The notes: a model not told the origin generated them from the sequence alone. DNA of 32,000 bases from an uncultured Pseudomonadota bacterium (GCA_963773305.1 CAVZAR010000002.1:20334-52333); one strand, 5' to 3'; numbered from the stretch's first letter, positions 3 through 27,003 are shown. Translations and numbers: made by a program.

Positions 3-1520
3 GTGTCGCCCCTACGTTTCTATTGCCACACTCGCCACATTTATCTTGGCATGGCCTATCTGATCGGCTCCGGATTTCGGGCCGATCTTGGTCCGATTAC
101 CGTTGAGCTGCAAAAGGAATTGTACGGCCGTGTCCGACCCGAAGAGGCCGTGCGTCACAAGCACGACCTCGCCGCCAGTGATGCCTATGTGCGTCCGGGG
201 TTCGGATTGCGGCTTCTCTACGACGTCGTTTCCATTCTTGGCCGTGTTTGGCGGTACGTTCCGGGAGCCGCGTCGCTTCGCCGTCATGCGCTCGATGCCT
301 GCCTAACGCGCATTTTGTTCGAGCAACGTGCAACGGCTTATCAAGGGCTGTCGCCGGTTAACGGGGTGCTCAATACACTGGCGCTCTACGCCCGCGCCCC
401 GATGTCCGAGGACACGCTGGCCAGCTTCGATGGCGTAGAGACCTGGCGCTGGGACGATGAGACGCACGGTACGCGTTATGCCGGCGCCCGCTCGACGACC
501 TGGGACACGAGCTTTGCAATCCAGGCCTTGCTCGCAGGCGGCCCCGAGGCGGCGCTGCGGGAGGCGGGTGGGCTGCGGCGCGCCTACCGCAAGCTTGCCG
601 ACATGCAGATGATCTCCGAGCTCGACGAGGGGGCTGCTCAAGGGCGCGACCCAATCGTAGGCGGTTGGTGTTTCAGCAACGGGGAGCATCGGTGGCCGGT
701 GAGCGACTGTGCGGCTGAAGCCGTGATCGCTCTGCTTGATTGTCACGATGTCCCCGGATTGATTCCACAGAAAGAGCGACTGTCAAAGCCCCGGCTCGTC
801 GACGCCATGGGCTTTATTCTGAGCCGCCAGAACGCCGACGGCGGTTTTGGCACCTACGAACGACGTCGGGGCCAGCGCTTTCTCGAACATTTCAATCCAT
901 CCGAGATGTTCGGTCAATGCATGACCGAGCTTTCCTATCTGGAATGCACGGCTTCGTCGATACGCGCGCTCGGCCGTCTTAAGCGTAATGGCGACTCTGC
1001 TCAGCAGACAAATGCACAAGCCGCGATAGACCGAGGCGTGGCATTCATCTTGGGCCAGCAGAGGGCCGACGGGAGTTGGCCTGGTTTCTGGGGCATCAAC
1101 TTCATCTACGGCACATATTTCGCCCTTGCCGGACTGTTCGAAGCGGGATTGGCATCCGACCATCCGGCCTTCGCGAAAGCGCGTCGATGGCTGCAAAGCA
1201 TCCAGCATGCCGACGGAGGTTGGGGAGAGCACTTCTCTGGCTGCTTGACCGGCACATATTCGGATAATTCGTCAAGTTTGATTATCGGTACGGCCTGGGC
1301 ATGCCTGGGGCTCATGTACGCGCACGACGTTTCGTCGAATGCGCTTGATCGTGGCATCGATTACCTCCGAACGCGGCAGATGCGCGACGGCGGCTGGCCG
1401 CGAGAAGGCGTCAACGGCGTCTTCTTCGGCACGGCGATGCTCGAGTATGCGCTTTACAACAGCTACTTCCCGACAATGGCTTTGGCACTGTTTGGCAGTC
1501 GTCGTCATGGCCGGCATTGA
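3..1520 (+). CDS. Oxidosqualene cyclase (lanosterol/cycloartenol synthase type), 5'-truncated by window edge
   Basis: QW-type repeats are present (RQNADGGFG, QQRADGSWPGFWG, IQHADGGWGEH, RQMRDGGWPREG). The catalytic motif is VSDCAAE, the OSC-type VxDCTAE pattern rather than the DxDDTA of squalene-hopene cyclases. The first residues (..CHTRHIYLGMAYL..) align to the interior of cyclases, so the N-terminus lies upstream of the window. Confidence 0.9.
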   Translation: MSPLRFYCHTRHIYLGMAYLIGSGFRADLGPITVELQKELYGRVRPEEAVRHKHDLAASDAYVRPGFGLRLLYDVVSILGRVWRYVPGAASLRRHALDACLTRILFEQRATAYQGLSPVNGVLNTLALYARAPMSEDTLASFDGVETWRWDDETHGTRYAGARSTTWDTSFAIQALLAGGPEAALREAGGLRRAYRKLADMQMISELDEGAAQGRDPIVGGWCFSNGEHRWPVSDCAAEAVIALLDCHDVPGLIPQKERLSKPRLVDAMGFILSRQNADGGFGTYERRRGQRFLEHFNPSEMFGQCMTELSYLECTASSIRALGRLKRNGDSAQQTNAQAAIDRGVAFILGQQRADGSWPGFWGINFIYGTYFALAGLFEAGLASDHPAFAKARRWLQSIQHADGGWGEHFSGCLTGTYSDNSSSLIIGTAWACLGLMYAHDVSSNALDRGIDYLRTRQMRDGGWPREGVNGVFFGTAMLEYALYNSYFPTMALALFGSRRHGRH

Positions 1521-2841
1521 TTATGACGCGGTCATCGCGGGGGCCGGCGTGGCCGGAGTCGCCGCCGCCGCGGCGTTAAAGGAGCTCGGATGGTCGGTCC
1601 TCGTCATCGAACCTGGTCAACACGATGAGCGGCGCCTTGGCGGCGAATTGATTCATCCGACCGGGGTGATGGCGCTGCGTGAGCTCGGCCTGTTCTCGGA
1701 AGTCGCCTCCGAAGGAGCCGCCTCGATCGCGGGGTTCATTGCATTGCCCGGACGAGACGAAGGCTGGGCAAACATTGCACTTCCTTATTCGCAGCGAGGG
1801 GCGTATGGAACTGCGATCGCCCTCGCTCACGCACGCATCCGCGCAAGCCTGCAGAGGGCCGCTGCCCGGCTCGGCCATGCCGAAATGCTCAAGGGTGGCC
1901 GCGTGGTCGGAGTCGAAGCCGGCCGGATGCCGACGCGAGTTCGCATCCAGCACGCCGGCAGCATCTTAACGGTCAATTGCCGATTGGTCGTCGGCGCCGA
2001 CGGCGCCTCGAGTGCTGTGCGCGCTTTGGCCGGCATTTCGCACTGGCGTCGGCCGGTCTCCGCGGTCACAGGATATGTAATTAGCGACGCAAACCTGCCG
2101 GCCCGCGGATTCGGTCACGTCTTCATCGGCGGCAGCGCGCCATTGCTGGTATATGAAATTGGGGGCGGCCGCGCTCGCGTCCTTTTCGATCAGCCGATTT
2201 CGCAGTCGAACATTCCCCCCGAACAACATCGTAGCAAAGTCATCTCTGCCATTGCCTATCCCAGGCTACGCACCGAGATCGAGGCGGCGGTGGCGGAGCA
2301 GCGGGGTTTGCGATTTGTCAGCGCCGATGTGGTCGTTGAAACCGCCGCGCGCAATGGCGTCGTGCTGGTGGGCGACGCCGGAGGCAGCTGTCATCCGCTC
2401 ACCGCGACCGGAATGACCATCAGCGTGAACGATGCTCTGCGACTTCGCAACGCTTTGCGCGCGGCTGGCGACAACATCGGCGCGGCATTGTCGCGATATG
2501 GACGAGGCCGGAGACTTCCGCAGCGTACGCGTCTGCTGGTGGCATCCGCGCTGCACGATGCCTTCAGCGGGACAAGGCCTGAGCATCAGCTGATACGTGC
2601 GGGGCTCATCCGATATTGGCTGCGTGACGCGCGCGGCCGGCGGGCTTCGATGGACATCTTGGCTATGAGCGACGTTCGCCTGCTCTCCGCGTTGCGCGAA
2701 ATCCTCGTCGTCGTTCGGCATGGTATCGCGGCGAAGTCGGCTGGCTGGTCAATCGGCCGCGTCGGCGCCGGCTTGCGGCTGATGGCGGGTGTTACCGGCG
2801 TTGTCATGCGCCAGCTCAGTTTCGCGATGCGCGCCAAGTAG
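1507..2841 (+). CDS. Squalene monooxygenase (squalene epoxidase), FAD-dependent
   Basis: The ATG at 1507 gives MAGIDYDAVIAGAGVAGVAAAAAL, a GxGxxG dinucleotide fold. A GDAGGSCHPLTATGMT motif typical of the squalene epoxidase family is present. The track start at 1339 lies inside the cyclase gene and was rejected. The chosen start overlaps the cyclase stop by 14 nt. Confidence 0.85.
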   Translation: MAGIDYDAVIAGAGVAGVAAAAALKELGWSVLVIEPGQHDERRLGGELIHPTGVMALRELGLFSEVASEGAASIAGFIALPGRDEGWANIALPYSQRGAYGTAIALAHARIRASLQRAAARLGHAEMLKGGRVVGVEAGRMPTRVRIQHAGSILTVNCRLVVGADGASSAVRALAGISHWRRPVSAVTGYVISDANLPARGFGHVFIGGSAPLLVYEIGGGRARVLFDQPISQSNIPPEQHRSKVISAIAYPRLRTEIEAAVAEQRGLRFVSADVVVETAARNGVVLVGDAGGSCHPLTATGMTISVNDALRLRNALRAAGDNIGAALSRYGRGRRLPQRTRLLVASALHDAFSGTRPEHQLIRAGLIRYWLRDARGRRASMDILAMSDVRLLSALREILVVVRHGIAAKSAGWSIGRVGAGLRLMAGVTGVVMRQLSFAMRAK

Positions 2842-2852
2842 GGCACACCACC

Positions 2853-3881
2853 ATGATCCTGGTCACCGGCGCTGGCGGACATCTTGGTGCGAACCTGCTG
2901 CGAAGGCTGTTGGCCGACGGCCAGCAGGTGCGGGCCATGTTGCATACCGAGCGAGACCGGCCGAGCGTGGAAGGGCTTGTCGTCGATGTCTTCGTGGGCG
3001 ACCTGCGCGACCCGAGAGCGGCCGAAACGGCCGCGCGCGGCTGCCGGCAGATCTATCATTGCGCTGCCAAGGTATCGACGACCTATGCGAACCGCGACGA
3101 TATTTTCGACGCAAACGTGATCGCGACGCGCAACGTCCTGCGCGCCGCAAAAGCGAGCGGGGTCGAAAAGGTCGTAGTCACGGGCTCGTTCAGCGCTGTA
3201 GGCGTCCGCGACGACGGTCCGAGCGACGAAAATGACCCGTTCAACCCGCTGCAGCCTCACTTGCCGTACGGCTTCACCAAGGCTGCCGTCGAACACGAGT
3301 GTCTGAAGGCTTTCGCCGATGGGGTCCCCGTCGTGGTCGCGGTGTCGACCGCGATTGTCGGGCCCAACGATTTCAAGCCGTCGCGCATGGGGCAGGTGCT
3401 GATCCGCTTCGCTTCAGGGCGGCTGCACGCCTATGTGCCGGGCGGTTTCCCCTTCGTTGCCGCCGAGGACATTGTGCAAGGTCACTTGCTTGCCATGACC
3501 AAGGGTCGGCCTGGACAGAAATACATTTTCGCAACTTCGTTCATGAGTTTCGACGATCTGATGCAAATGTTTTCCCAGGTTACCGGGCGTCCGGCTCCGC
3601 GGCTGCGCATTCCGCCGGAGTTGATGGGTGCCCTCGCGCAGGTCGCCGGTGCGCTGCTGCCGTATCTCAAGCCGAACAGCGAGCAATTGTTGACGCCCGC
3701 GGCCATACGCATTCTACGCATGAATCGGAAGGCCGACATCAGCAAAGCACAGAGCGAGTTGGGTTTCCGGCCCACGAGCATCGAGCGCGCCATTCGCCAG
3801 GCCCATGACTGGTTCGTGGCCCGGGGAGTGATCGCCGCCCCGGTCGGTTCGGCGGCCCGGTTAGTGGAAGCGTCGCGATGA
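2853..3881 (+). CDS. NAD(P)-dependent epimerase/dehydratase (3beta-HSD / sterol C-4 decarboxylase-reductase type; SdmB-like)
   Basis: N-terminal Rossmann motif ILVTGAGGHLGANL and a YxxxK catalytic dyad (YGFTK). It sits between squalene epoxidase and CYP51, and its stop overlaps the CYP51 start by 4 nt. Confidence 0.7.
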   Translation: MILVTGAGGHLGANLLRRLLADGQQVRAMLHTERDRPSVEGLVVDVFVGDLRDPRAAETAARGCRQIYHCAAKVSTTYANRDDIFDANVIATRNVLRAAKASGVEKVVVTGSFSAVGVRDDGPSDENDPFNPLQPHLPYGFTKAAVEHECLKAFADGVPVVVAVSTAIVGPNDFKPSRMGQVLIRFASGRLHAYVPGGFPFVAAEDIVQGHLLAMTKGRPGQKYIFATSFMSFDDLMQMFSQVTGRPAPRLRIPPELMGALAQVAGALLPYLKPNSEQLLTPAAIRILRMNRKADISKAQSELGFRPTSIERAIRQAHDWFVARGVIAAPVGSAARLVEASR

Positions 3882-5227
3882 AAACGGTTCCGATGGTCGC
3901 CGGCGGCTTGCCTTATATCGGCCACGCGCTGGCCTTTAACCGGAATCCCGTAGAATTCTTGCAAAACGGCAAGGCGCTGCACGGCGACCTGTTTCGTTTC
4001 CGGCTGCTGGGGAACACCGTCTATGCACTGATGTCGAGTCGGGGCAACGAAGCGGTGTTTCGCGCCTCCGATGGCGTACTCGATTTCCGCGAAGCTTACC
4101 GCTTCACAATCCCGATTTTCGGCAAGGGTGTCGCCTATGATGTTGCGCCCGAGCTGATGGATCAGCAACTCGAGTTAATCCATCCCGGCCTGCGCGACGA
4201 GGCGATGCAGAATTATGCCGGGATCATGGCCGATGAAGTCGAGCGCTTCGCCACACGTCTTGGCGGCGGAGGCGAGATTGATCTCTTGACCGCGCTCAAT
4301 GAGCTCACGACCTTTATCGCCGGCCGTTGCCTCCTCGGCGAAGAGTTCAGAAGCCGTTTGTCGGCGGAATTCGCAGGGCTTTACCGCGATCTCGAGGGCG
4401 GCATCAATCTCGTCGCGTTTGTTGCGCCGTATTTCCCTACCGCCAAAAACCGACGCCGCGACCGGGCTCGGCGCGAGGTCGCCGCGATAATCGCCGATCT
4501 CATCGCAGGCCGTCGCCGCAGTGAAAAGGGGGAAGACGACTTCCTTTCCGTCCTGATGGCGGCGCGCTACGCCGACGGCACATCGTTGACGGACGATGCC
4601 ATCGCCGGCCTGCTGCTCACCCTGCTGTTTGCCGGCCAGCACACCAGCGCCGTCATGGCATCATGGTTGGGCGTGATGCTATCCAAGCATCGTGATCATG
4701 GAGCGGCCGTCGCCCGCGAAGCATCCGACATGCTCGGCAGTGAAGTTCGTCTGGCCAAGCTGAAGCGGATGCGGTTGATGGAATATTGCCTGAAAGAAGT
4801 GGAGCGGCTTTACCCGCCCCTCGTCATGCTGATGCGGAAGACGGTGCAGCCATTCTCGGTCGGCGACATCGTCATACCGCCGGGCAATCTGGTCATGGTA
4901 TCGCCCGGCGTGAGCCATCGCCAGCGCGAGGTCTTTCGAAATCCCGATGTTTTCGATCCAGCCCGTTTTGCGCCGCCGCGCGAAGAGGATCGCAAAACGC
5001 CTTATTCGCTGATCGGGTTCGGTGGAGGCAAGCATCGGTGCATCGGCATGGCGTTCGCCCATCAGCAGATCAAGGTCATCTGGGGCATTCTCCTGCAGCG
5101 TTTCGAATTCGAGCTGGTCGAGCCACAGGTCGAGCCCGACTATGCGACCTTTGTGGTGGGTCCGCGGCAGCCATGCCGCGTACGTTACCGCCGCCGGCAG
5201 TCCGAATCCTTGGCTGAGGCAAGCTGA
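3878..5227 (+). CDS. cyp51: Cytochrome P450 sterol 14-alpha-demethylase (CYP51)
   Basis: Heme-thiolate motif FGGGKHRCIGMAFA, CYP51-specific I-helix signature AGQHTS (LLFAGQHTSAV), and B'-helix signature YRFTIPIFGKGVAYDV. Confidence 0.9.
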   Translation: MKTVPMVAGGLPYIGHALAFNRNPVEFLQNGKALHGDLFRFRLLGNTVYALMSSRGNEAVFRASDGVLDFREAYRFTIPIFGKGVAYDVAPELMDQQLELIHPGLRDEAMQNYAGIMADEVERFATRLGGGGEIDLLTALNELTTFIAGRCLLGEEFRSRLSAEFAGLYRDLEGGINLVAFVAPYFPTAKNRRRDRARREVAAIIADLIAGRRRSEKGEDDFLSVLMAARYADGTSLTDDAIAGLLLTLLFAGQHTSAVMASWLGVMLSKHRDHGAAVAREASDMLGSEVRLAKLKRMRLMEYCLKEVERLYPPLVMLMRKTVQPFSVGDIVIPPGNLVMVSPGVSHRQREVFRNPDVFDPARFAPPREEDRKTPYSLIGFGGGKHRCIGMAFAHQQIKVIWGILLQRFEFELVEPQVEPDYATFVVGPRQPCRVRYRRRQSESLAEAS

Positions 5228-6840
5228 TGCGCACGCCCCGACCGATCGACTGGTTTCTCATTGGGCTCGTGGTGTTCTTCATTGCGTTCAACGCTACGGT
5301 TGATCGCTATTGGGTGACGCATGCGCACGAATTGCCGGCGCTGACCAAGACCGACCTTTTCGCGCGCATGTTCCAACATTATGCAGCCGCCGACCGAGGC
5401 TATTTCGACGAGGTCACCCAGGCCGAACTTGCGCTGGAAACGATCAACAGCACAATCACGCAAGCCTTCAACATCTGGCTGCTGATCGCGCTGTTCGCGC
5501 GCTGGCCGGTGCGCGTGCCGTTGCAGATCGCGATCGGCTCCTGGGTATCGTATTCGGTCTTGTTCAACTGGTGGTGCGCCCTGATCGCCGGTTTTCCCGG
5601 CATGGATCACAAGACGCCATGGAACTTCATCGTTTTGGTTGGAGCCAATCTGCCGTGGCTGGCTGGCCATCTCTACATCGCTTTCGCTGGCGCCCGCGAA
5701 TTCTTAAAGGTCGAGCCGCTCCCCGCCCCCGCCATGCGGAAGACCGCGCCGCTACCTCCCGATTTCTCCACGGCGCGCAATCTTCGCCAGAAAGCCCGCG
5801 CCGCGGGGCTTGACCCCGACCATTGGTACGCCTTCACGCGCGCCAAAGATCTCAAGCCGGGACAGGTGGTGGCTTCGAGCTTCCAAGGCGAAGCGATCGC
5901 GATCTATCGCGCTGCCGATGGCAAAGTTCGCGCCATGACCGACCGCTGCCTGCATCGCGGCATTCGGCTGTCGTTGGGCGAGGTGAGGGACTGCGGGCTC
6001 GTCTGCGCCTACCACGGTTGGGCCTATGGTGAAGATGGTAAGCTCGTCGATGTTGCGCACGAAAGGTTTGGCCGACCGCTGCCGGACGTCGGCGTCAGGG
6101 TATTCCCCGTGCGCGAGCGCTACGGCTTGATCTGGGTCTTTCCCGGCGATGCGGTGCGCGCCGAATCTGTGCCCATGCCCGAAATTCCGGAGATCGAGGG
6201 CCCGGATGCGTGGGCCTTCACGGCAATTGAATATACCTGGGATGCGCACCACTCGATCATCATCGATAACCTCAGTGATCTCACGCACGCCTATCTTCAC
6301 CGCCGCTACCGGCCGTTCCACGATCCCGTCCTGACGAAAAACGAGCCCAGCGATAACTCGGTGTACTGCATCTACGAATTGTCATTGCTAGACGGTCCGA
6401 TGAAGCGTCTGATCGACCGCGGCGCCAAGATGGACCTGATGGAGTTGTGCCTCGAGTACCCCTACCAGTGGGGCAATACCGGCGGTCGTGTAAAGCATTG
6501 GGTTTTTCTGACGCCGTTAAACGACCATCAAACGCGCGTCTACTTTATCTTCTATTTCAATCAGGTACAGGTGCCTTTCACGCCCTTTCATTTTCCGCAG
6601 CGGGTGATGGGCTGGGTGATCGGCATCTTCAACCCGATCTTCATCAAGCCGGTGACGAGTCAGGACGGCGATGCCGTCGCATGGGAACAGGAGGGCTACG
6701 ACACCGAGTTGGGCCGTCCCGTCATCGAACTCAATCCGGCGGTCGCCCAGTTCCAGCAGTTGATCGTGCGCAAGTGGCAGAACTATCTCGACCGCGTCTC
6801 CGGCGGGTCGGCTGCGAAGCATGAAAGCGCATTGACATGA
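5227..6840 (+). CDS. Fusion protein: N-terminal EBP/EXPERA-like 4-TM domain plus C-terminal Rieske [2Fe-2S] non-heme iron oxygenase (SdmA-like candidate sterol C-4 methyl oxidase)
   Basis: Rieske motif CLHRG...(17)...CAYHGW and a downstream DNLSDLTHAYLH metal-binding-like motif. The first ~165 aa are hydrophobic and paralogous to the next gene (shared ADRGYFDEV, RWP, YSV, NLPWL). The start overlaps the CYP51 stop (TGATG). Confidence 0.75.
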   Translation: MRTPRPIDWFLIGLVVFFIAFNATVDRYWVTHAHELPALTKTDLFARMFQHYAAADRGYFDEVTQAELALETINSTITQAFNIWLLIALFARWPVRVPLQIAIGSWVSYSVLFNWWCALIAGFPGMDHKTPWNFIVLVGANLPWLAGHLYIAFAGAREFLKVEPLPAPAMRKTAPLPPDFSTARNLRQKARAAGLDPDHWYAFTRAKDLKPGQVVASSFQGEAIAIYRAADGKVRAMTDRCLHRGIRLSLGEVRDCGLVCAYHGWAYGEDGKLVDVAHERFGRPLPDVGVRVFPVRERYGLIWVFPGDAVRAESVPMPEIPEIEGPDAWAFTAIEYTWDAHHSIIIDNLSDLTHAYLHRRYRPFHDPVLTKNEPSDNSVYCIYELSLLDGPMKRLIDRGAKMDLMELCLEYPYQWGNTGGRVKHWVFLTPLNDHQTRVYFIFYFNQVQVPFTPFHFPQRVMGWVIGIFNPIFIKPVTSQDGDAVAWEQEGYDTELGRPVIELNPAVAQFQQLIVRKWQNYLDRVSGGSAAKHESALT

Positions 6841-7334
6841 TGCGCACCGACAAAATAGCGCTCTCGTTAATCGCCTTCTTTGTCGTCGTGGCGCTGACGA
6901 TCGAACTGTATTGGCTTGTCCATGCCTTCGATTTGGCGAGCAGCAATAGTTGGCTCGCCCGCGGCTTCGCATTTTACGGCCGAGGCGACCGCGGCTACTT
7001 CGACGAGGTGAGCTGGTTCGAGGTCGGGCTCGAAAGCTTCAACATCATTTTCACGGTTCCGGTGTATCTCGTGTTGGGATATGCGATCGTCGCCGGGCGC
7101 GGGTTCCGCTGGCCCTTGCAGCTTTGTCTGGGTGCTTACACGACTTATTCCGTCGTGCTCTACCTGACGGCAAAGCATGTCACCGGCTATGTCGAGATGC
7201 CGAAACACGACCTCGCGTCGTTTCTAATTCTGTACGTTCCCAACCTTCCTTGGCTCTTTGGAAACGGGTATCTGACGCTCGATGCGGCAAGGGTCATCCT
7301 CCGCGCTGTGCGATTGCGCGAAAGGGGGGCGTGA
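6837..7334 (+). CDS. EBP-like (emopamil-binding-protein / sterol Delta8-Delta7 isomerase family) small membrane protein
   Basis: 165 aa with about 4 hydrophobic helices. YGRGDRGYFDEV resembles the EBP Y-x-K-G-D-S-R-Y segment. LESFN, RWPLQLCLGAYTTYSVVLYL and NLPWLFGNGYLTLDA align, from memory, to EBP METIT, ...LQLVVSVGQIYGDVLYF and NALWLVLPGVLVLDA. ATGA overlap with the upstream gene and TGATG overlap with the downstream gene. Confidence 0.65.
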   Translation: MMRTDKIALSLIAFFVVVALTIELYWLVHAFDLASSNSWLARGFAFYGRGDRGYFDEVSWFEVGLESFNIIFTVPVYLVLGYAIVAGRGFRWPLQLCLGAYTTYSVVLYLTAKHVTGYVEMPKHDLASFLILYVPNLPWLFGNGYLTLDAARVILRAVRLRERGA

Positions 7335-8401
7335 TGCAGTTCGCGCCGGTGACCTTGCAATCTGTCGGCCTTTCGGTACTCGGCATCGCGGGTTTTATTG
7401 TTGCCTTATTCGTATCGTCGCTCGTGGTGCCGGGTCCGGAATACGAGGTGACGGCCCGCGGCGGCGAGCGCATTCGCTACCGGCTCAATGGCTTGGCGCT
7501 GCTCGCAATAACGATCGCGATAGCGGCGCTCGCGCAATGGCGTGGACCCGGTCTGGCGCCGCTGGCGCGAGACATCTGGTCGCTTTTTATCGCGGCGAAC
7601 TTGTTGGCTTGGCCGGCGGCCTTCCTGCTGGTCGCCCGCGCGGGAGCGTGGCGGAAGAGCAGCGTCGCCGATTATTTCTACGGGGTCGAGAGGAACCCGC
7701 AGCTCTTCGGCATCGATTTGAAAATGTTCTCCTATCGTCCGTCGTTGATCGGGCTCGCGCTCGTCAACGCCTCTTTTGCGGCGTGGCAGTGGCAGGTCGC
7801 CGGGACGCTCAGCCTGGCGATGACCTGCTATCAGGTTTTCACGCTGCTCTATATCGTGAACTATTTCCAGTTCGAGAGCGGCATGCTTTTCACCTGGGAC
7901 ATCATCGAAGAAAAGTTCGGCTGGATGCTGGTTTGGGGCGACTATGTGCTGGTGCCCTTTTTCTACGCTTTGCCGGCCGCGTTCGTGCTTTCGCGGCCGG
8001 GTGATGTGACCTTCGCCGGAGCGGCGGCGCTCGCGGTGCTTTACCTGCTGGGTTTTTGGATTTTCCGCGGCGCCAATTCCCAGAAGCATCGCTTCAAGCG
8101 CCAGCCGGGCGCGCCGGTGTGGGGGCGTTCGCCCAGCGTCATCGGGGGCAAATTGCTCGCTTCGGGCTTTTGGGGCATCGGCCGCAAGCTCAACTACACC
8201 GGCGAATTCCTGATGTACCTGAGCTGGACGCTGCTGGCGGGCTTCCGGTCCGTTGTGCCGTATCTGCTGCTGCTGTGGCTGCTGCTGCTGCTTATGCAGC
8301 GCGCCAGCCGCGACGACCGCCGCTGCCGCGAAAAATATGGCCAGCTTTGGGATGAGTACTGCCGCAAGGCGCGGTTTCGAATGTTTCCGTACATCTATTG
8401 A
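7334..8401 (+). CDS. Sterol reductase, ERG4/ERG24 family (C-14 reductase most likely; DHCR7 or C-24(28) reductase not excluded)
   Basis: Family signatures LLASGFWGIGRKLNYTGEFLMYLSW and the C-terminal RDDRRCREKYGQLWDEYCRKARFRMFPYIY. The chosen start is the ATG at 7334 (MQFAPVTLQ...). The track's 6950 start would overlap the whole EBP-like gene. Confidence 0.85.
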   Translation: MQFAPVTLQSVGLSVLGIAGFIVALFVSSLVVPGPEYEVTARGGERIRYRLNGLALLAITIAIAALAQWRGPGLAPLARDIWSLFIAANLLAWPAAFLLVARAGAWRKSSVADYFYGVERNPQLFGIDLKMFSYRPSLIGLALVNASFAAWQWQVAGTLSLAMTCYQVFTLLYIVNYFQFESGMLFTWDIIEEKFGWMLVWGDYVLVPFFYALPAAFVLSRPGDVTFAGAAALAVLYLLGFWIFRGANSQKHRFKRQPGAPVWGRSPSVIGGKLLASGFWGIGRKLNYTGEFLMYLSWTLLAGFRSVVPYLLLLWLLLLLMQRASRDDRRCREKYGQLWDEYCRKARFRMFPYIY

Positions 8402-8404
8402 GGC

Positions 8405-9661
8405 GTGACGATGAACCGTGATCGAATTTACGACGTATGCATCGTCGGTGCCGGACCGGCCGGAGCCACGTGCGCCTTCTACCTCGCCAGCCATGGGCAC
8501 GATGTCGCGCTCCTGGAACGCAAGCGATTCCCGCGCGACAAGATTTGTGGCGACGCGATCTGTGCGCAGGCACAGCTGCATCTGAAACGCATGGGCGTCT
8601 TGCAGCAGATCATCGATAACGACGAGGGGCACTTTGCAGCTGTTGGCGGCATGGTCAGCCCGCGCGGCTACAGCTACATCGCCAGCTCTGCCGAACATCT
8701 TAAATCGAGCCAAGTTATCGCTATTAAACGTATGTTTCTTGACGTGCGTATCGCGTACGCAGCTAGGTCGGCCGGCGCAAATTTGGTAGAGGATGTCGCG
8801 GTTGCCGGGGCTGATTTCGACAAAACGAGCGGAACTTGGACCGTCACAACGGAAAATGGACAGCCGCCGATTCGCGCCCGCGTGCTTGTGGCAGCCGATG
8901 GCGCGCTCTCTCGTCTTGCGCGCCGCCTCGGCTATCTCGCATCGCCGCCGGATGCGGTATGCAGCCGCGCCTATGTGCGTGCCGACTCGACGAATTTCGA
9001 TGCCGACGGCGTGGTCTATTATCCAAAGCGCCTGCTCCCGGGATATTGCGCGATCTTTCGAGAAGCGCGCGGGGAGTTGAATTTCTGCGTCTATATTATC
9101 CCGGGCGGTAAGACCGGGATCGACGATCTGCGCACTGTACATCACGAGATCTTGCACAAGGATCCGCACGTCAGCCGTGCCATTGGCCCAAAAGCCGAAA
9201 TCGATCCGATGAAAGGTGCACCATTGCGGCTCGGCGGTATTGCGCGCAGCTACGGTGACCACTTTCTTATCGTCGGTGACGCCGCCGGACATATCGACCC
9301 GCTCACCGGCGAAGGTATTCAATTCGGTATGGACGCCGCGGAATATGCCGCCGACACGCTCCATGCTGCGCTGGCGGTCGGCGACCTCAGCGCAAGTGCT
9401 TTGAAAATCTACCAGGACCGCTGGATGAAAGCTTTCGGGCGTGACTTTTCCTGGTCATCGGCGATTGCGCGCTTTTATGCGCGGTTCCCCGGTTTTCTCG
9501 ACGCCGGTGCCTTGACCTTGCAGCGGCTGGGCCCACCTTTTCTGGCCGAATGGGCGCAGATCATGACCGGAGCTAGGCCAAAGACGGATTTCTTCAAGCC
9601 GGGAGTGTTCGCGCCGATCATGCGCGATTTTGTGTCCTTGCACTTGAGATCCGCGGCATGA
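8405..9661 (+). CDS. Geranylgeranyl-reductase-family FAD-dependent oxidoreductase
   Basis: YDVCIVGAGPAGATCAFYLASHGHDVALLERKRFPRDKICGDAI is the classic GGR-family N-terminus, and GDAAGHIDPLTGEGI is the second FAD motif. Start is GTG 8405 or ATG 8411. Confidence 0.7.
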   Translation: MTMNRDRIYDVCIVGAGPAGATCAFYLASHGHDVALLERKRFPRDKICGDAICAQAQLHLKRMGVLQQIIDNDEGHFAAVGGMVSPRGYSYIASSAEHLKSSQVIAIKRMFLDVRIAYAARSAGANLVEDVAVAGADFDKTSGTWTVTTENGQPPIRARVLVAADGALSRLARRLGYLASPPDAVCSRAYVRADSTNFDADGVVYYPKRLLPGYCAIFREARGELNFCVYIIPGGKTGIDDLRTVHHEILHKDPHVSRAIGPKAEIDPMKGAPLRLGGIARSYGDHFLIVGDAAGHIDPLTGEGIQFGMDAAEYAADTLHAALAVGDLSASALKIYQDRWMKAFGRDFSWSSAIARFYARFPGFLDAGALTLQRLGPPFLAEWAQIMTGARPKTDFFKPGVFAPIMRDFVSLHLRSAA

Positions 9662-10686
9662 ACGCGCAAGACAAACGCGGCAACCCGGGCATTGCGCAAT
9701 TGCTATCGTCGAATTCTGATCGCAACGGCGTCGAGGCGGCGGTTACCGACTATCTGGCGCATTACCACGGCACGCTCGCCGACCGCCAGTCGGCCTATGC
9801 GGACGTGGTGAACGGCTACTTCGACCTTGCGACCGACTTTTATGAGTATGGTTGGGGCCAATCGTTTCACTTCGCGCAAATAGCCGCGGGCGAATCGTTC
9901 GCGCAAGCAATCATCCGCCACGAGCGTCAGCTTTTTCATAGGCTCGGAGCGCAATCGAACATGACCGTGCTTGATGTCGGGTGCGGAGTAGGCGGCCCGA
10001 TGCGGAATCTCGCGCGCCTCGCGGGGTGCAAAGTTGTTGGCATCAACAACAATGCCTATCAGGTTTGGCGTGCAAAGCAGCTGAACGCCGAGGCCGGTAT
10101 TGACGAGCAATGTCGCGTCGTGCCCGGTGATTTCATGGCCATGCCGCTCTCGGACGGCACGATGGACGGAGCATACGCGATTGAGGCAACAGTGCACGCG
10201 CCGAACTGGGGTCGCGTGTTTCGCGAGGTCTGGCGGGTGCTCAGGCCCGGCGCCTCCTTTGCACTTTACGACTGGTGTCTGACCGATGTTTTCGATGTTG
10301 GAAATCCGCACCATCAGGAAATTAAGCGACGAATTGTTGCGGGCAACGGGTTGATCGACATAGGGACGTCTAGGCAATTGCTAGAGGCGCTGGGTGGGGC
10401 TGGATTCGATCTGCTTGAACATTATGACGCTGCTGCACGAGGCGGCGCGCCGTGGTTCGAGCCGCTGGCGCCGCGCAGCGTCTCGCTCGCGGGGTTCCGC
10501 AGCTCGGCCGTCGGTCGGAAAGTGACAAACTGGTCGCTGAAGGCGCTAGAGCTGTTGCGCATCGCGCCAAAGGGTACATTCAACGTGGCAGTCTTCCTCG
10601 ATAAAGCCGCGGTTGCGCTGGTAGAGGGAGGAAGGAGTGGGATTTTTACGCCGATGTATTTCGTGCATGCCCGTAAGCCCGGTTGA
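9658..10686 (+). CDS. Sterol 24-C-methyltransferase (SMT / ERG6 family)
   Basis: SMT region-I signature YEYGWGQSFHF, SAM motif VLDVGCGVGGPMRNL, and an SMT-type C-terminus GIFTPMYFVHARKP. ATGA overlap with the upstream gene. Confidence 0.9.
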   Translation: MNAQDKRGNPGIAQLLSSNSDRNGVEAAVTDYLAHYHGTLADRQSAYADVVNGYFDLATDFYEYGWGQSFHFAQIAAGESFAQAIIRHERQLFHRLGAQSNMTVLDVGCGVGGPMRNLARLAGCKVVGINNNAYQVWRAKQLNAEAGIDEQCRVVPGDFMAMPLSDGTMDGAYAIEATVHAPNWGRVFREVWRVLRPGASFALYDWCLTDVFDVGNPHHQEIKRRIVAGNGLIDIGTSRQLLEALGGAGFDLLEHYDAAARGGAPWFEPLAPRSVSLAGFRSSAVGRKVTNWSLKALELLRIAPKGTFNVAVFLDKAAVALVEGGRSGIFTPMYFVHARKPG

Positions 10687-10689
10687 GCC

Positions 10690-11937
10690 ATGCGGGTGGC
10701 GGTCGTTGGCGGAGGTGTTGCAGGTCTCACAACGGCATGGCTACTGGCGGAAACTTGCGATGTAACGCTTTTCGAACGCGGTCCGAGGCTGGGCGGCCAC
10801 GCCCACACTGTCGACATCATGGAAGATGGAAAGCAAATTGCGATCGATGTCGGCGCGGAATTTTTCGGCAATCGGCAGACTTATCCGCGATTTCATCGTC
10901 TGCTTGACCTTCTTTCGGTGCCGACCCGTTCCTTTTCGGCGACCGCGACGGTCTATTGTCCCGAGAACGGAGACAAATTGGTACTGCCGCCGTGGCGTGC
11001 CGGCGTGGTCGACTGGTCGGCGCTGAACCTTCGTGGGCTTTTGAATCTTTTGCGCTTCGCCGAATTTTCCGCAGCGGTCGGCTTCTCGAACGAAAACGCG
11101 CTTCGGCGAGAGACGATTAAGCAGTTTCTTGAACGGAAGTCGGCGCCAGATTTTAGAGACCGTTTACTGGTGCCGTTTCTGCTTGGACAGTTCGGAATGC
11201 CGCGCGACGCATTCAACGATTGTCTTGCCTACGACACGCTTAAATACTGCATGCAGGCTGGCGCCCTTCGACTAACTGCGCCGCGAATGACGGAAGTCGT
11301 GGGTGGGACGCGGAGTTATGTCGAGGCGCTGGAGGGCGAACTGCCGCGAGAGTGTGTGGTCCGGGACGCGTTGGTCACGCGCATTGAGTCGTCCCGTGAA
11401 GGACTCTTTCTCTGCCTTGACGACGGGGAACGGTATGCGGCGGATCACGTTGTGATAACCGCGGGCGCCAAGGACGCTGCTCGCTTATGCAAGACGAGTG
11501 GGCTCGCAAATGAAGCCCGCATTTTCGGCGGTGTCGATACGTTCGAAGCTGAATTGGTAGTTCACGGTGATGCTTCGGTCATGCCTGCCGAACCGAAAAG
11601 CTGGTCGGTCGCCAATTTTCGCGCGTCCGGCGATAGCGCAGCGTTGACGGTCTGGAAGCCTTGGAAAAGTAAGACCGTGTTCCGGAGTTGGACGACCGGA
11701 AAGGGGCATACTTACCGGAGCGAACACGGCAGATTCTGCTTTCGCCATCCAGTCGGCAATTCAAAATATTATTGGGTTCAGGATGCAATCCGCGTGCTGC
11801 AAGGCACAAAGAGTATCTGGTTTGCGGGAGCTTGCGTGCAAGACAATGACTGTCACGAAAGCGCTGTTATGTCGGCGCTCGCCGTGGCGCGCAGGCTTGC
11901 ACCGGGCAGCGGTCGAATTGTACAGCTCGGTCAGTAA
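10690..11937 (+). CDS. NAD(P)/FAD-dependent oxidoreductase (amine-oxidase/CrtI superfamily, COG2907-like), function unknown
   Basis: N-terminus MRVAVVGGGVAGLTTAWLLAETCDVTLFERGPRLGGHAHTV is a dinucleotide fold plus the GGH motif typical of this family. It is the last gene of the sterol operon and starts 3 nt after the SMT stop. Confidence 0.65.
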   Translation: MRVAVVGGGVAGLTTAWLLAETCDVTLFERGPRLGGHAHTVDIMEDGKQIAIDVGAEFFGNRQTYPRFHRLLDLLSVPTRSFSATATVYCPENGDKLVLPPWRAGVVDWSALNLRGLLNLLRFAEFSAAVGFSNENALRRETIKQFLERKSAPDFRDRLLVPFLLGQFGMPRDAFNDCLAYDTLKYCMQAGALRLTAPRMTEVVGGTRSYVEALEGELPRECVVRDALVTRIESSREGLFLCLDDGERYAADHVVITAGAKDAARLCKTSGLANEARIFGGVDTFEAELVVHGDASVMPAEPKSWSVANFRASGDSAALTVWKPWKSKTVFRSWTTGKGHTYRSEHGRFCFRHPVGNSKYYWVQDAIRVLQGTKSIWFAGACVQDNDCHESAVMSALAVARRLAPGSGRIVQLGQ

Positions 11938-17885: not shown

Positions 17886-19246
17886 GTCAGTTCCGCCGTG
17901 TCGCGATATTCCGGCACCGTGCAGGCCCAGCCGAGCTCTTCTTCGATGCGGTGGCGCAGCGCGTCGGCCGCCTCCGGCTCGCCATGGGTGATGAAGGTCT
18001 TCTTGGGGGCGGTACGGAAGTTGCGCAGCCAACCCATGATCTCGTCGGCGTCGGCATGGGCGGACAGCATGTGCAGATTGTCGACCTCGGCGCGCACGGG
18101 AACGTAGGACCCATGAATTTTGATCGCTTCGGCACCTTTTGTCATGGCGTCGCCGCGCGTGCCGCCGGCCTGGAAGCCGGCGAACAGGATGGTGTTGCGG
18201 GCATCCGGCGCATAGACCTTCAGATGATGCAGCACGCGGCCGCCGGTCGCCATGCCGCTCGCCGAAATGATGACCTTGGGCGTGCGATCGCTGTCGATCG
18301 CCTTGGACTCCTCGACGCTTGTTGTGAAGCGCGCCACCGCGCAGACAGCGCGCGCCTCGCTCTTGCTCAGCTTTTCCTCGTCGGCGTGCTTGACGAACAG
18401 TTCGCTCGCTTCGATCGCCATCGGACTGTCGAGGAAGATCGGGATTTCCGGAATGCGCTTTTGCTGCTTGAGCCGGCGCAGATGGTACATCAAGAGCTGC
18501 GAGCGGCCGACCGCGAAGGAGGGGATCACCACCGTGCCGCCACGCCCGGCGGTCCGGTTGATGATGTCGGCCAGCACCTCTTCCGGGTCCCGCGCCTCGT
18601 GCTTGCGGTTACCGTAGGTCGACTCGATCAGCAGATAGTCGGTCTGCCGGATTGGGGTGGGATCGATCACGATGGCGCTGTGGGGGCGGCCGAGATCGCC
18701 GGAGAACACCACCTTGGTGCCGCCGCAGGTGAGTTCGATCATTGCTGCGCCGAGAATGTGCCCGGCCGGCACGAAGCGGAAGCGGACCTGCGCCGACAAT
18801 TGCTTGTCCTCGTTGAAATCGAACGCGGCGAGGCGCTTGAGCGAGAATTCTGCGTCTTCCAGCGTGTAGAGCGGCAGCGCCGGATGGTGTTTGGAGAAGC
18901 CGTGGCGGTTGGCGAATTCGGCGTCCTTCTCCTGCAGGTGGCCGCTGTCCGGCAGCAGGATGGCGCACAGGTCGCGCGTGCCCGGCGTGCAGTAGATCGG
19001 CCCGCGAAAGCCGTTCTTCACGAGCAGCGGCAGATAGCCGGTATGATCGAGATGTGCATGCGTGAGGATGACGGCATCGACGCTTTTGGGATCGACCGGC
19101 AGCGGCGCCCAGTTGCGCAGGCGCAGCTGCTTGAAGCCCTGGAACAATCCGCAATCCACGAAGAAACGCTTGCCTTCCGCCTCCACCAGATATTTGGAGC
19201 CGGTGACCGTGCCGGCGGCGCCCAGGAAAGTAAGCTGTAAGCCCAT
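17882..19246 (-). CDS. MBL-fold metallo-hydrolase of the beta-CASP (RNA-metabolising) type
   Basis: MGLQLTFLGAAGTVTGSKYLVEA..., the HxHxDH motif (THAHLDHTGYLP), and beta-CASP-type C-terminal motifs (SAHAD). ATG at 19246 chosen. Confidence 0.85.
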   Translation of the reverse strand: MGLQLTFLGAAGTVTGSKYLVEAEGKRFFVDCGLFQGFKQLRLRNWAPLPVDPKSVDAVILTHAHLDHTGYLPLLVKNGFRGPIYCTPGTRDLCAILLPDSGHLQEKDAEFANRHGFSKHHPALPLYTLEDAEFSLKRLAAFDFNEDKQLSAQVRFRFVPAGHILGAAMIELTCGGTKVVFSGDLGRPHSAIVIDPTPIRQTDYLLIESTYGNRKHEARDPEEVLADIINRTAGRGGTVVIPSFAVGRSQLLMYHLRRLKQQKRIPEIPIFLDSPMAIEASELFVKHADEEKLSKSEARAVCAVARFTTSVEESKAIDSDRTPKVIISASGMATGGRVLHHLKVYAPDARNTILFAGFQAGGTRGDAMTKGAEAIKIHGSYVPVRAEVDNLHMLSAHADADEIMGWLRNFRTAPKKTFITHGEPEAADALRHRIEEELGWACTVPEYRDTAELT

Positions 19247-19348
19247 TGTGCCGCTCCGGCCGGTTGACGTTAACCGGCCGGCGCATAGGACCACCGTCGG
19301 GAACCGCGGCGTTTAACCTGGATCAAATTGCCGGGGAAACAAAGCAGC

Positions 19349-24759: not shown

Positions 24760-25072
24760 TGCCGCGAGGGGCCAATAGCTGACGTAAGAACTTTGCGACG
24801 GCAGCCATCAAGGAAAGTTAAGTTACAATAGAAAACTGAACAGCGGCTCTGCGCATCTTTATGCAATTGATAATATTATAGATTCGGCGGTCCTTGATTG
24901 AGTTGCGAAAATAAGGCCGCCCTAGGCGCACGCAACCTTTCCTTGTATCATTTCGCTCACTAACCGGATCCAGTAACCGCGTCGGAATTTGTGGGTGGCC
25001 ACAGGTTAGCACGACGTTCTCTGCGCGCAGACTTGCAAAAATAAAAACTCCGCATCGCAAGGAAGTGAAGTA

Positions 25073-25744
25073 ATGAAGGGCTCTACGACAACACATCAGG
25101 GGGCGGAACAGCCGCACTCGATCAAAGTGGCAGTTAAGTTCTTCCTTTTTGCACTAGCCGCATTGATCGCTTCGACACACGCATATAGCGCGGAGTGCGG
25201 CGGCTCGAAGCCCTCCCCTCCTTTTTCTGAAGTGGCAAAAGGAGGCTTCGAAGTCCGAATAGCCGACATTGCCTGGAGTACGAACATCATTAATTTATGT
25301 CCGCGTAACCGCCTTTCGGGAACCATTGACACGCCCAATCGACTTTATCTCTGGATGCGTCTCCAGGGCGGCGACGCGGCAATCAACAAGCTTAAGCGGG
25401 AGGGCCGATATCCGCTTAAACACGTATGGGAGGTGAGTTTAGGCGGGACCATTCTGCCGGATCCTGGAGACGAGGAGGACATCAAAACAGTCTTTCAGCA
25501 GACGGATAACATCAATGTAACTCGAAAGCTTCCAATGCAAACGAAAGCTTTGAAAGGAGAGGCCAAATCCAAAGGCACGTTTGATTGGCGCACATGGAGT
25601 GGCAAGAAGAACCTATACCCTGGAGGACTTTACGAAGTGAAGATCCTCGATCAACAGAATAGGCCCGTACCTTGTTCACAACAGTTGCATTGCGATCCTT
25701 GTGAAGGCGGAATTCGATGCGCCGTTTTTATCAAACTGCAGTAG
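25073..25744 (+). CDS. Hypothetical secreted protein (possible DUF2914-like C-terminal domain)
   Basis: AAGGAAG Shine-Dalgarno about 8 nt upstream of the ATG. A signal-peptide-like segment is present (VKFFLFALAALIASTHAYSA/EC). FDWRTWSGKKNLYPGGLYEVKILDQQNRPV resembles the DUF2914 core from memory. The C-terminus is Cys-rich, and GC is markedly lower than the surroundings. Confidence 0.6.
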   Translation: MKGSTTTHQGAEQPHSIKVAVKFFLFALAALIASTHAYSAECGGSKPSPPFSEVAKGGFEVRIADIAWSTNIINLCPRNRLSGTIDTPNRLYLWMRLQGGDAAINKLKREGRYPLKHVWEVSLGGTILPDPGDEEDIKTVFQQTDNINVTRKLPMQTKALKGEAKSKGTFDWRTWSGKKNLYPGGLYEVKILDQQNRPVPCSQQLHCDPCEGGIRCAVFIKLQ

Positions 25745-25753
25745 GTACATACT

Positions 25754-26761
25754 GTGGGACCAAGAAGCATGGATGGAAGCATTGACAATTCAAATGAGCA
25801 ACAAACCACAAGTGGCTTACGTCTCAAGGAAGCGATTGAAGATTTTCTGATTCTTTTAGACTACCTTGCAAGGCGCGGGGATGATGTTGGCCATTCGACT
25901 ATTGACGCGGTCATCAGTGCAGAGAGGGCCGACCAAAGCAACGGCTTTGATGCCAGCAAGGAAGCGGCATTGTGGGTTGCTCTAAATCAATTGAGCAAAG
26001 CGGCGGCCCCCGCTACTCCAGAAACAATACGATTTAGTCAAAGACGTGCCGGTGAGGGGCCGAGCGAAGGGGCAAACCGAAAGATTACGCACGCCGTAGC
26101 AAGCAAGTATCGTTCAGTAACATTTGTTTTCTTCGTATTATTTGTGATTCTCAGTGCTTATTGGTCGGCAGTTACAGCCTCGCTTGGAACCCTCACCGAG
26201 GCAACGGAAAAGTTGGAATCAAAAACAACAACGTCAATCGAAAAACAAAATGCCGCGGTAGACATTGCCTCGTCGATGAGGGCGTTAAAGGTTTTGTCGC
26301 TCGGGAGCACATCCTTCTTCGATCACTCCTCTTCGGATAACCACTCTTCTGATAATTCCTCATTGGATAAGCCCGAAACGAAAACCCATATCGTTCAGTC
26401 TACGACAAGTGATAGGTTTATACGAAACCTCATGAAAGGAGTTGTGGATGCGATATATCTTTTCATATTGCCGCTCGTCGCGGGTGGGTTAGGGGCGGGC
26501 GTTTACGTTGTAAGGTTGATTTCAAAAGAGATTGAACGTGAAGCATTCTCCCCGAAGCTCACAATTCGGTTTGATTTAAGAATTTATCTTGGATCGATTG
26601 CGGGTTTGATAATATGTCGTCTTTTCTTAACAGAGGCTTCCAATTTCGGGAATACACTCACGCCGATCGGCATTGCCTTTATTGTTGGCTATAGCATAGA
26701 AGTATTTTTCTCGCTCCTAGACAGAATAGTCGGCGCCTTTTCAACAGAGACGCGCCGCTAA
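25754..26761 (+). CDS. Hypothetical membrane protein (about 4 TM), no recognised domain
   Basis: Long open frame in the low-GC island, starting 10 nt after the upstream stop (GTG 25754 or ATG 25769). Hydrophobic helices are VTFVFFVLFVILSAYWSAV, AIYLFILPLVAGGLGAGVYVV, IYLGSIAGLIICRLF and IGIAFIVGYSIEVFFSLL. A Ser/Asp-rich repeat DHSSSDNHSSDNSSLD is present. Confidence 0.6.
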   Translation: MGPRSMDGSIDNSNEQQTTSGLRLKEAIEDFLILLDYLARRGDDVGHSTIDAVISAERADQSNGFDASKEAALWVALNQLSKAAAPATPETIRFSQRRAGEGPSEGANRKITHAVASKYRSVTFVFFVLFVILSAYWSAVTASLGTLTEATEKLESKTTTSIEKQNAAVDIASSMRALKVLSLGSTSFFDHSSSDNHSSDNSSLDKPETKTHIVQSTTSDRFIRNLMKGVVDAIYLFILPLVAGGLGAGVYVVRLISKEIEREAFSPKLTIRFDLRIYLGSIAGLIICRLFLTEASNFGNTLTPIGIAFIVGYSIEVFFSLLDRIVGAFSTETRR

Positions 26762-27003
26762 ATTTTTTGCGGGAAATGGATCTCGACTATGTGTAACATC
26801 CGCTCCGGGTCATTTTCGACTGGGACGCGGCCGGCAGCACGTCCCGCCATGTCGGCTTTGCCCCGAAAGCCGAAGTGAAACGAAGATGTTGGCATCTATC
26901 GTGACCGGTCATGGCGCGTTGATGATGCCGCCCGACGCATGATTCAGCCTCCCAAACTGGAGCTTCGATTCATGCGCGGGCTCGGCGTGCGGGAGTAGGA
27001 GCG

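Follow-up and report, generated by a model that had tools for sequence, protein, structure and literature searches.

Why would a bacterial sterol operon carry two copies of the same small membrane domain side by side, one of them joined to a Rieske oxygenase? The operon lies in a stretch of 32,000 nucleotides from an uncultured Pseudomonadota bacterium (GCA_963773305.1, CAVZAR010000002.1:20334-52333), hereafter the window. Here a protein of 537 amino acids (aa) begins with a domain of the EXPERA/EBP family, to which the human sterol Delta8-Delta7 isomerase EBP belongs, and continues as a Rieske non-heme-iron oxygenase, and the next gene encodes a 165-aa protein made of the same kind of domain. 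We refer to the fused copy as the partner (or D-type) domain and to the standalone copy as the E-type domain. The reading that we favour, with modest confidence, is that the two copies form an EXPERA heterodimer by which a further sterol oxygenase of the C-4 type is kept at the membrane. That the copies dimerise, that one is an isomerase, and what the oxygenase does to which substrate are all things that we infer from sequence.

Fusion residues 1-161 and the 165-aa protein are paralogs, as a first-pass annotation of this DNA had proposed. With fusion residues 1-196 as query, BLASTP aligned the two colinearly from residue 1, with 55 identities in 161 positions (34%, E 2e-27), a similarity far above chance, and a tblastn search within the window detected no third EXPERA copy. 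Both pass the Pfam PF05241 (EXPERA/EBP) gathering cut-off of 25.7 bits, the fusion with 28.6 bits over residues 44-152 and the standalone protein with 32.9 bits over residues 43-149. In a phmmer search of all PDB sequences, the single 165-aa protein matched human EBP (PDB 6OHT, E 2.9e-4), and the human-EBP sequence blocks that the annotation had named proved real, with KGDSRY / RGDRGY, METIT / LESFN and NALWL / NLPWL (human / 165-aa protein) aligned in register. Family profiles gave lower E values: 6OHT was matched at E 1.2e-15 by a profile of 61 standalone relatives (profile positions 12-165) and at E 1.9e-8 by a profile of 14 fused N-terminal domains (positions 32-173, the first helix falling outside the alignment). 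Human EBP was the sole credible PDB match for both profiles, neither of which matched any sigma-2 receptor (TMEM97) chain in the PDB at E <= 1. A profile-profile comparison of the fused and standalone types returned a probability of 100% (E 1.9e-57). By these profile measures, membership of the EXPERA superfamily, which the annotation had also recognised, is established for both copies.

The fusion itself is genuine and not a mis-joined open reading frame (ORF). Homolog searches in NCBI, ENA, JGI and Logan assemblies returned about 23 clusters in which the N-terminal domain is kept in one uninterrupted frame (length 513-549 aa, identity 47-100%), while the ordinary SdmA-like relatives, of which there are hundreds, are about 376 aa long, start to align near fusion residue 175 and have no transmembrane (TM) segment. 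Among the matches listed from species-representative genomes, the full fusion occurred only in an uncultured alphaproteobacterial metagenome-assembled genome (L004, 71% identity). Scans of genomes and metagenomes with a full-length fusion alignment found it, among the matches listed, in L004, L092, L101 and L102, and most of the others were unfused SdmA-like loci. No EBP-like ORF was present within 10 kb of the unfused SdmA-like genes among the matches listed (L005-L083, and L084-L163 minus the fusion fragments L092, L101 and L102). One might still see in the N-terminal extension an artefact, whether of start calling, of a frameshift or of chimeric assembly, and some relatives are indeed damaged, P0007 and P0355 being frameshifted and L164 lying in fragments. 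The recurrence of one frame of this length in about 23 clusters from four assembly sources, together with split versions of the module (L171 and L172, see below) that have clean stop and start codons where expected, speaks against it. The conservation data refute this explanation, to which we give practically no credence.

The first-pass annotation was right that two EBP-like copies are present but missed that they belong to a conserved pairing. The E-type gene directly follows the fusion in 12 of the 12 contigs with downstream sequence and is followed in turn by an ERG24-type sterol reductase gene; conversely, the partner domain always had an adjoining E-type gene in the 14 loci examined. In a neighbour-joining tree of EXPERA domains, the partner clade is separate from the E-type clade. 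The partner clade contains the Rieske-fused domains, the N-terminal halves of tandem proteins and a few standalone proteins, and the E-type clade contains the next-gene copies, the C-terminal halves of the tandem proteins and an ERG24-EBP fusion. The bacterial EXPERA family is small, with about 300 members found by profile search in 1.84 billion representative proteins, and the top matches of the search were proteins of 337-375 aa with two EXPERA domains. In these tandem EBP-EBP proteins, one of which is annotated from the alphaproteobacterium Aliidongia sp. (MEA2754343.1), the C-terminal half always carries A-E-D-E-N-W at the positions of human EBP His76, Glu80, Asp108, Glu122, Asn193 and Trp196, and the N-terminal half is degenerate (N-G-D-V-G-W, for instance). 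At L169 the gene order is OSC, SQMO, SdmB, CYP51, EBP-EBP, ERG24, the tandem protein occupying the operon slot of the window's pair. Tandem proteins are likewise encoded at L170, at the same operon position (CYP51, EBP-EBP, ERG24), and at L168.

Two further loci have the module split into separate genes. At L171, a partner EXPERA protein (168 aa), a Rieske protein (363 aa), an E-type EXPERA protein (173 aa) and ERG24 follow one another with successive 4-bp overlaps, and at L172 the same order of partner, Rieske, E-type and ERG24 is found with junctions that overlap or abut (overlaps of 1 or 4 bp). The three parts are tied pairwise by natural fusions, the partner with the E-type domain in the tandem proteins and the partner with the Rieske oxygenase in the window. 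The tree and the gene orders indicate that the two copies are old, separate bacterial clades forming a conserved pair and not a casual duplication, and the tandem proteins at the same operon position suggest that partner and E-type probably form a heterodimer. EXPERA domains have also been joined to other sterol enzymes. An E-type domain is fused to an ERG24-family reductase in a 573-aa protein of Streptomyces eurocidicus (WP_102917479.1 / P0194), and a degenerate, partner-like (non-E-type) domain stands N-terminal to a CYP51-like P450 in metagenomic proteins of 676-691 aa (P0213, P0354). A 2023 survey of bacterial sterol genes appears to list the S. eurocidicus ERG24-EBP gene (a 1707-bp locus) simply as a C-14 reductase.

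Which of the two copies could be an isomerase? The difference that the annotation had pointed out between TIELYW in the standalone copy and TVDRYW in the fused one falls at the position of human Glu80, and it is a fixed subfamily signature: 23 of 23 fused copies have Asp there, and 63 of 63 standalone relatives in the alignment have Glu. At the positions of human H76, E80, D108, E122, N193 and W196, the partner domain has N22, D26, D56, E71, N141 and W144, and the E-type protein has A19, E23, D51, E66, N136 and W139. Canonical EBPs of 210-290 aa from the same search read H-E-D-E-N-W at these sites, the standalone type A-E-D-E-N-W and the fused type (N/A/S)-D-D-E-(N/S)-W. In human EBP the catalytic triad consists of His76, Glu80 and Glu122, the carbocation is stabilised by Trp196, and Asn193 also matters. 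The E-type equivalents of Glu80, Asp108, Glu122, Asn193 and Trp196 are kept, position by position, in 62-64 of 64 relatives. The partner domain has an invariant polar cavity of its own (D26, D56, E67, E71, W144 and H148 in 14 aligned fused copies).

The proposal of a Glu copy that is likely catalytic and an Asp copy that serves for delivery or anchoring has gained strength from the tandem proteins, with their degenerate partner half and intact Glu half, and from the EXPERA-P450 fusion, the activity itself being presumed. Of the claim that the copies are EBP-like isomerases, the EXPERA/EBP family assignment stands; the isomerase part is presumptive, because His76 is absent from both copies. Membership of the catalytic EBP group is not established, since two of its defining features, His76 and a fifth helix, are missing. 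Partner residue H148 lies one helical turn from W144, on the face bearing the EBP cavity residues, and partner-type domains all have a His there, which is common in some E-types too; as a speculation, H148 could stand in for the missing His76. In the searchable literature we came upon no bacterial EBP homolog that had been tested biochemically, and surveys list such homologs by homology alone.

The oxygenase part of the fusion should be active, since the [2Fe-2S] ligands C241, H243, C260 and H263 and the iron ligands H354 and H358 are invariant throughout the fused clade (26 aligned sequences), the latter two within the motif AHHSIIIDNLSDLTH, itself invariant. It is about 50% identical to SdmA-like proteins, and around the iron ligands the fused proteins and those sandwiched between two EXPERA genes at L171 and L172 read DNLSDLTH, as against DNVSDFTH in ordinary SdmA-like proteins, the clade substitutions that flank the ligands being L349 and L352. 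The fused Rieske proteins were monophyletic in 86 of 100 neighbour-joining bootstraps, with P0026, a 5'-truncated fragment of a fusion, counted as fused. The figure was 95 of 100 with the split-locus proteins included, and these sandwiched proteins are sister to the fused ones, in a tree of SdmA-like proteins that does not contain the characterised SdmA (MCA1016). The unfused copies that these clusters also encode fall among ordinary SdmA-like proteins of many phyla. Such an ordinary, unfused SdmA-like gene stands beside the cyclase or P450 gene in every related cluster with enough upstream sequence (L001, L003, L004, L164 in fragments, L165 in part, L166, L167 and L171), and an SdmB-like gene is present in the window operon and in all related loci. 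The annotation had taken the fused Rieske for the candidate C-4 methyl oxidase; the tree places it instead in a distinct clade, as an SdmA-family paralog and not an ortholog of SdmA, and the related clusters have an ordinary SdmA-like gene besides. A 90%-cluster mate of the fusion is named '4beta-methylsterol monooxygenase' in JGI.

Some other oxygenase genes were observed during the searches. Some SdmA-like Rieske proteins (P0035, P0048, L005; about 52% identity) carry annotations to Bradyrhizobium and Rhodoplanes, genera in which sterol-type genes would not be expected. In related clusters, a KshA_C-type Rieske gene, absent from the window, stands beside a second, longer ERG4/ERG24 reductase gene and an amine-oxidase-like flavoprotein gene (L001 14465-15481, minus strand, and 18019-19326; L172 115-3598, minus strand; L170 13483-14421; L164 14856-15761); the Rieske protein and the second reductase may act together, as desaturase and reductase, in further changes of ring double bonds. 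At L168 (4798-7109), in a cluster with a tandem EBP-EBP protein and a single Rieske protein, a fatty-acid-hydroxylase-family gene (PF04116, the family of ERG3 and ERG25) is divergent and adjoins the EBP gene, and in this one case it may fill the role that the second Rieske has in the fusion-bearing clusters.

AlphaFold modelled the whole fusion (predicted local distance difference test, pLDDT, 87.5; predicted template-modelling score, pTM, 0.65) as four long helices in the N-terminal domain, a disordered linker at about residues 162-185 and a Rieske oxygenase. Block-averaged pLDDT in the N-terminal domain was about 87-97 over most of its length and 78 in the 121-130 loop. A tally of Lys and Arg residues assigns the N-terminus, the short loop 92-96 (loop 2) and the linker to the cytoplasmic side, an N-in/C-in topology. 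These counts would place the Fe-S domain in the cytoplasm, the side that a Rieske Fe-S domain requires. In a fold search with the fusion model, the best matches to the oxygenase part were dicamba monooxygenase, SxtT/GxtA, carbazole dioxygenase and KshA, which are alpha3 Rieske oxygenases. The alignment of the bacterial EXPERA domains with human EBP begins at about human residue 67-75, and human TM1 has no counterpart in them.

The favoured model can now be set out. The partner and E-type domains would be the two subunits of an inner-membrane heterodimer, a bacterial counterpart of the EBP homodimer, encoded in the operon after CYP51 and before the ERG24-type reductase. Other EXPERA proteins are paired too: EBP and the sigma-2 receptor look like obligate homodimers, and TM6SF2 contains two EXPERA repeats. 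In human EBP the subunits meet through TM3-5, and mutations at this interface impair the protein; the sigma-2 dimer is built of four-helix EXPERA chains whose two termini both face the cytosol. The E-type protein would be the probable Delta8-to-Delta7 isomerase subunit, acting on the ERG24 product, and the partner subunit would carry the cytoplasmic Rieske oxygenase at its C-terminus on a flexible linker of about 20 residues. An otherwise soluble oxygenase would in this way be kept at the membrane site where the C-14-reduced, isomerised sterol appears. Beyond anchoring, the partner probably binds the sterol substrate of the oxygenase: its invariant cavity in 14 fused copies, and the degenerate partner half of the tandem proteins, with which no Rieske is associated, suggest that it is more than an anchor.

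As to chemistry, the likeliest for the oxygenase would be a second, later C-4 methyl oxidation, divided with the cluster's own ordinary, unfused SdmA. C-4 oxidation is the most economical proposal in view of the identity of about 50% to SdmA-like proteins, the presence of SdmB in the operon and the JGI name of a near-identical protein. The ordinary SdmA-like gene in related clusters suggests that the substrate or timing of the fused paralog probably differs. Bacteria have been shown in published work to differ in their route to complete C-4 demethylation. Plants divide the task likewise, with SMO1 and SMO2 acting before and after the isomerase step. A more far-reaching version, possible but held only tentatively, is that the EXPERA heterodimer both isomerises the sterol and, by way of the conserved cavity of its partner subunit, extracts or orients membrane sterol for the tethered Rieske, with ERG24 reduction, isomerisation and a late oxidation (either the second demethylation at C-4 or a new desaturation of the ring) forming one metabolon. 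If this were true, uncultured soil Alphaproteobacteria would make fully processed sterols with a methylated side chain by a route that is not the eukaryotic one.

Several observations weigh against the heterodimer model. A His at the His76 position was found in 0/23 fused and 0/63 standalone relatives (the residue is A/G/S in the E-type clade and N/A/S/P in the partner clade), and in human EBP this His is the proposed proton donor, whose replacement in His76Ala abolishes activity. The bacterial domains have four TM helices and human EBP five, the first human helix, which they lack, being part of the membrane gate. An acidic pair in an EXPERA fold does not make an isomerase either, as the sigma-2 receptor has one and is no isomerase. 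On the side of the oxygenase, family similarity is the sole basis on which a reaction is assigned to the Rieske paralog, and the ordinary SdmA copy was seen in related loci only, its position in the window corresponding to sequence just before base 1 (the window starts inside the cyclase gene). Regarding assembly, the full-length model has no fixed domain orientation (pTM 0.65, with a disordered linker), and AlphaFold gave a pLDDT of 41 for a chimera of fusion residues 1-178 and the 165-aa protein, run as a single sequence without alignment. Moreover, alpha3-type Rieske oxygenases are trimers, and their stoichiometry with a dimeric EXPERA module does not follow simply.

Other explanations appeal to some of the same observations. 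The Rieske paralog may catalyse a different oxidation of the Delta7 product, such as C-5(6) or C-7 desaturation or ring hydroxylation, instead of C-4 oxidation; the Rieske enzymes Neverland/DAF-36 and KshA perform reactions of this sort. Its separate clade with substitutions beside the iron ligands (L349, L352) and the ordinary SdmA-like copy already present in the same clusters speak for it, and L168, with a tandem EBP-EBP protein and one Rieske, has a PF04116-family gene by its EBP gene of a kind not seen in the fusion-bearing clusters. This last pattern is a single case, however, absent from L169 and L170; a paralog that is about 50% identical to SdmA-like proteins and has every ligand in place points back to C-4 chemistry, and the separate KshA-like Rieske by the second ERG4/ERG24 reductase in related loci is a better desaturase/reductase candidate. 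We regard a different oxidation as doubtful, and rank C-5 desaturation below C-4 oxidation because the gene pattern supporting it occurs in one locus only.

Turning from the oxygenase to the EXPERA domains, the fused copy might be a plain membrane anchor, like the N-terminal helix of eukaryotic P450s, the E-type protein working alone (as a homodimer, for example) and the adjacency of the genes reflecting pathway order. An anchor would suit an oxygenase whose ordinary SdmA-like relatives have no TM segment, a model in which the two parts of the fusion have no fixed contact, and the use of a degenerate, non-E-type EXPERA domain in front of a CYP51-like P450 (P0213). Yet the invariance of D26, D56, E67, E71, W144 and H148 is not expected of a mere anchor, and against this reading stand also the tandem proteins, which join partner and E-type at this very place in the operon, and the 14 loci, in none of which the partner was seen without an adjoining E-type gene; we consider it unlikely. 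Less likely still, in our judgement, is that both copies are non-catalytic sterol binders like the sigma-2 receptor or TM6SF2, which would feed the oxygenase and the reductase with no isomerisation. The missing His76 in both clades (His76Ala human EBP being inactive), the four TM helices shared with sigma-2 and the example of sigma-2 itself, with an acidic pair and bound cholesterol and no isomerase activity, agree with it. But the E-type keeps the EBP residues, nearly without exception per position, and not the sigma-2 pattern, its profiles match EBP and not sigma-2 in the PDB, it is fused in S. eurocidicus to an ERG24-family reductase, the presumed preceding step, and no other isomerase candidate was seen in these clusters.

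The genes in which this module is embedded are listed in the table below. Bases 3..11937 of the window are a complete-looking bacterial sterol-biosynthesis operon of ten same-direction genes, whose stop and start codons overlap or nearly abut. The P450 stop and the fusion ATG have one base in common (TGATG), the fusion stop overlaps the start of the 165-aa gene (ATGA), and the stop of the latter is overlapped by the start of the ERG4/ERG24 reductase; these overlaps suggest translational coupling. The geranylgeranyl-reductase-like gene is of the same kind as a homolog recently reported to be needed for cholesterol production in Myxococcota.

Features of the window (position in nucleotides; residue ranges refer to the 537-aa fusion protein)
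Feature	Position	Strand	Remarks
Oxidosqualene-cyclase-like gene	3..1520	+	truncated by window start; visible operon begins here
Squalene epoxidase	1339..2841 (longest ORF)	+	
SdmB-like NAD-dependent epimerase / 3-beta-HSD family protein; C-4 decarboxylase/reductase candidate	2853..3881	+	
Cytochrome P450, CYP51-like, sterol 14-demethylase candidate	3878..5227	+	directly upstream of fusion gene
Fusion gene, 537 aa: partner-type EXPERA domain, linker and SdmA-family Rieske non-heme-iron oxygenase	5227..6840	+	
Partner (D-type) EXPERA domain	5227..5709, aa 1-161	+	four predicted TM helices 9-32, 65-91, 96-120, 131-161
Linker, Pro-rich, positively charged	5710..5781, aa 162-185	+	pLDDT <50 at 166-170
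Rieske oxygenase part	5782..6837, aa 186-537	+	Rieske and VanA_C-type catalytic domain
Standalone E-type EXPERA protein, 165 aa	6837..7334	+	
ERG4/ERG24-family sterol reductase, candidate C-14 reductase	7331..8401	+	start GTG 7331 or ATG 7334
Geranylgeranyl-reductase-like flavoprotein	8405..9661	+	
Sterol C-24 methyltransferase with Sterol_MT_C domain	9658..10686	+	
Amine-oxidase-like flavoprotein	10690..11937	+	

Outside the operon, a few observations concern its surroundings. A MacB-like ABC system, a candidate sterol exporter that was not seen within the window, flanks the sterol cluster in seven related loci (L001 1-2791; L003 750-2968; L166 694-2960; L167 1-3010; L170 453-5105; L171 5053-10001; L172 3609-8642). 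It comprises an FtsX permease, an ABC ATPase, a membrane-fusion protein and, in several of the loci, an outer-membrane factor, not all parts being visible at each locus, and the ABC ATPase bears GAF domains in L003, L166, L171 and L172 and a cNMP-binding domain in L170. In the window itself, G+C content falls to 49-50% at 25001..27000, against 58-70% elsewhere, and this stretch may be a recently acquired island; the ORFs 25073..25744 and 25754..26761 inside it have no Pfam match. A 742-aa ORF nearby (27145..29373, minus strand) has as its sole Pfam match a short RoxA-like cytochrome-c motif (28.7 bits, cut-off 26.7) and overlaps a long opposite-strand ORF (27175..28887), so that either strand may be the coding one.

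Text searches of the literature agree with the first-pass annotation, which knew of no description of this architecture: in the searchable literature we found no description of the EBP-Rieske fusion or of the three-gene module, and both appear to be undescribed, though built from known families. Published surveys treat bacterial 'C-8 isomerases' as single homologs only, in one published analysis EBP is taken to have arisen within eukaryotes, and the 2023 survey of sterol genes in bacteria contains no Alphaproteobacteria and no such fusion. The operon, which encodes a sterol C-24 methyltransferase, seems to come from uncultured Alphaproteobacteria, a group that the survey lacks. Bacterial sterol pathways inform the debate on the origin of eukaryotic sterol synthesis and the reading of sterane biomarkers. 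What these data add is a small, old bacterial EXPERA family with two paired subtypes, repeatedly fused to Rieske oxygenases, CYP51-like P450s, ERG24 or itself. The arrangement suggests how a soluble Rieske oxygenase reaches a membrane-buried sterol, and bacterial EBP relatives that lack His76 are a natural experiment bearing on the mechanism proposed for human EBP.

Among known systems, human EBP (6OHT, PF05241) is of the same family, acts as a dimer and has its place in the pathway right after C-14 reduction, and the bacterial copies retain equivalents of its Asp108, Glu122, Asn193 and Trp196 as well as of Glu80, which is Asp in the fused copy. It differs in having His76 and five TM helices, not four, and in being one homodimer-forming protein, whereas the bacterial pair, known from sequence alone, consists of two diverged paralogs, one with a 350-aa oxygenase attached. 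Like the bacterial domains, the sigma-2 receptor is an EXPERA bundle of four helices and comparable size; its cavity contains an acidic pair, its N- and C-termini both lie in the cytosol, and it is a homodimer that binds sterol; unlike it, the bacterial proteins bear the EBP-type N..W motif, and sigma-2 stands outside any biosynthetic operon. TM6SF2/TM6SF1 and the bacterial tandem EBP-EBP proteins have two EXPERA units as one module, and the tandem proteins, with a partner-clade N-terminal half and an E-type C-terminal half, reproduce the window's pair; in the window, however, the units are separate polypeptides with an oxygenase between them, and the partner keeps the polar cavity that is degenerate in tandem N-terminal halves.

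For the oxygenase, the nearest relative is the SdmA/SdmB system, the Rieske-type sterol C-4 demethylation of Methylococcus capsulatus, since extended to Calothrix and Enhygromyxa (PMC10202945). The likeness lies in the Rieske and VanA_C-type domains, the level of identity to SdmA-like proteins and the SdmB-like gene in the operon; the differences are that the window oxygenase belongs to a paralog clade whose members without exception have a partner EXPERA domain, either fused to them or encoded alongside, and that its motif around the iron ligands is altered. Natural fusions of bacterial sterol enzymes are known from the CYP51-ferredoxin of M. capsulatus (cited in PMC13277303), which, like the ERG24-EBP and EBP-P450 fusions described here, joins enzymes or helpers of adjacent sterol-pathway steps. 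In those cases a redox partner is attached or two membrane enzymes are joined, whereas the window fusion unites a membrane sterol-binding fold with a soluble oxygenase and has a second paralog of that fold adjoining.

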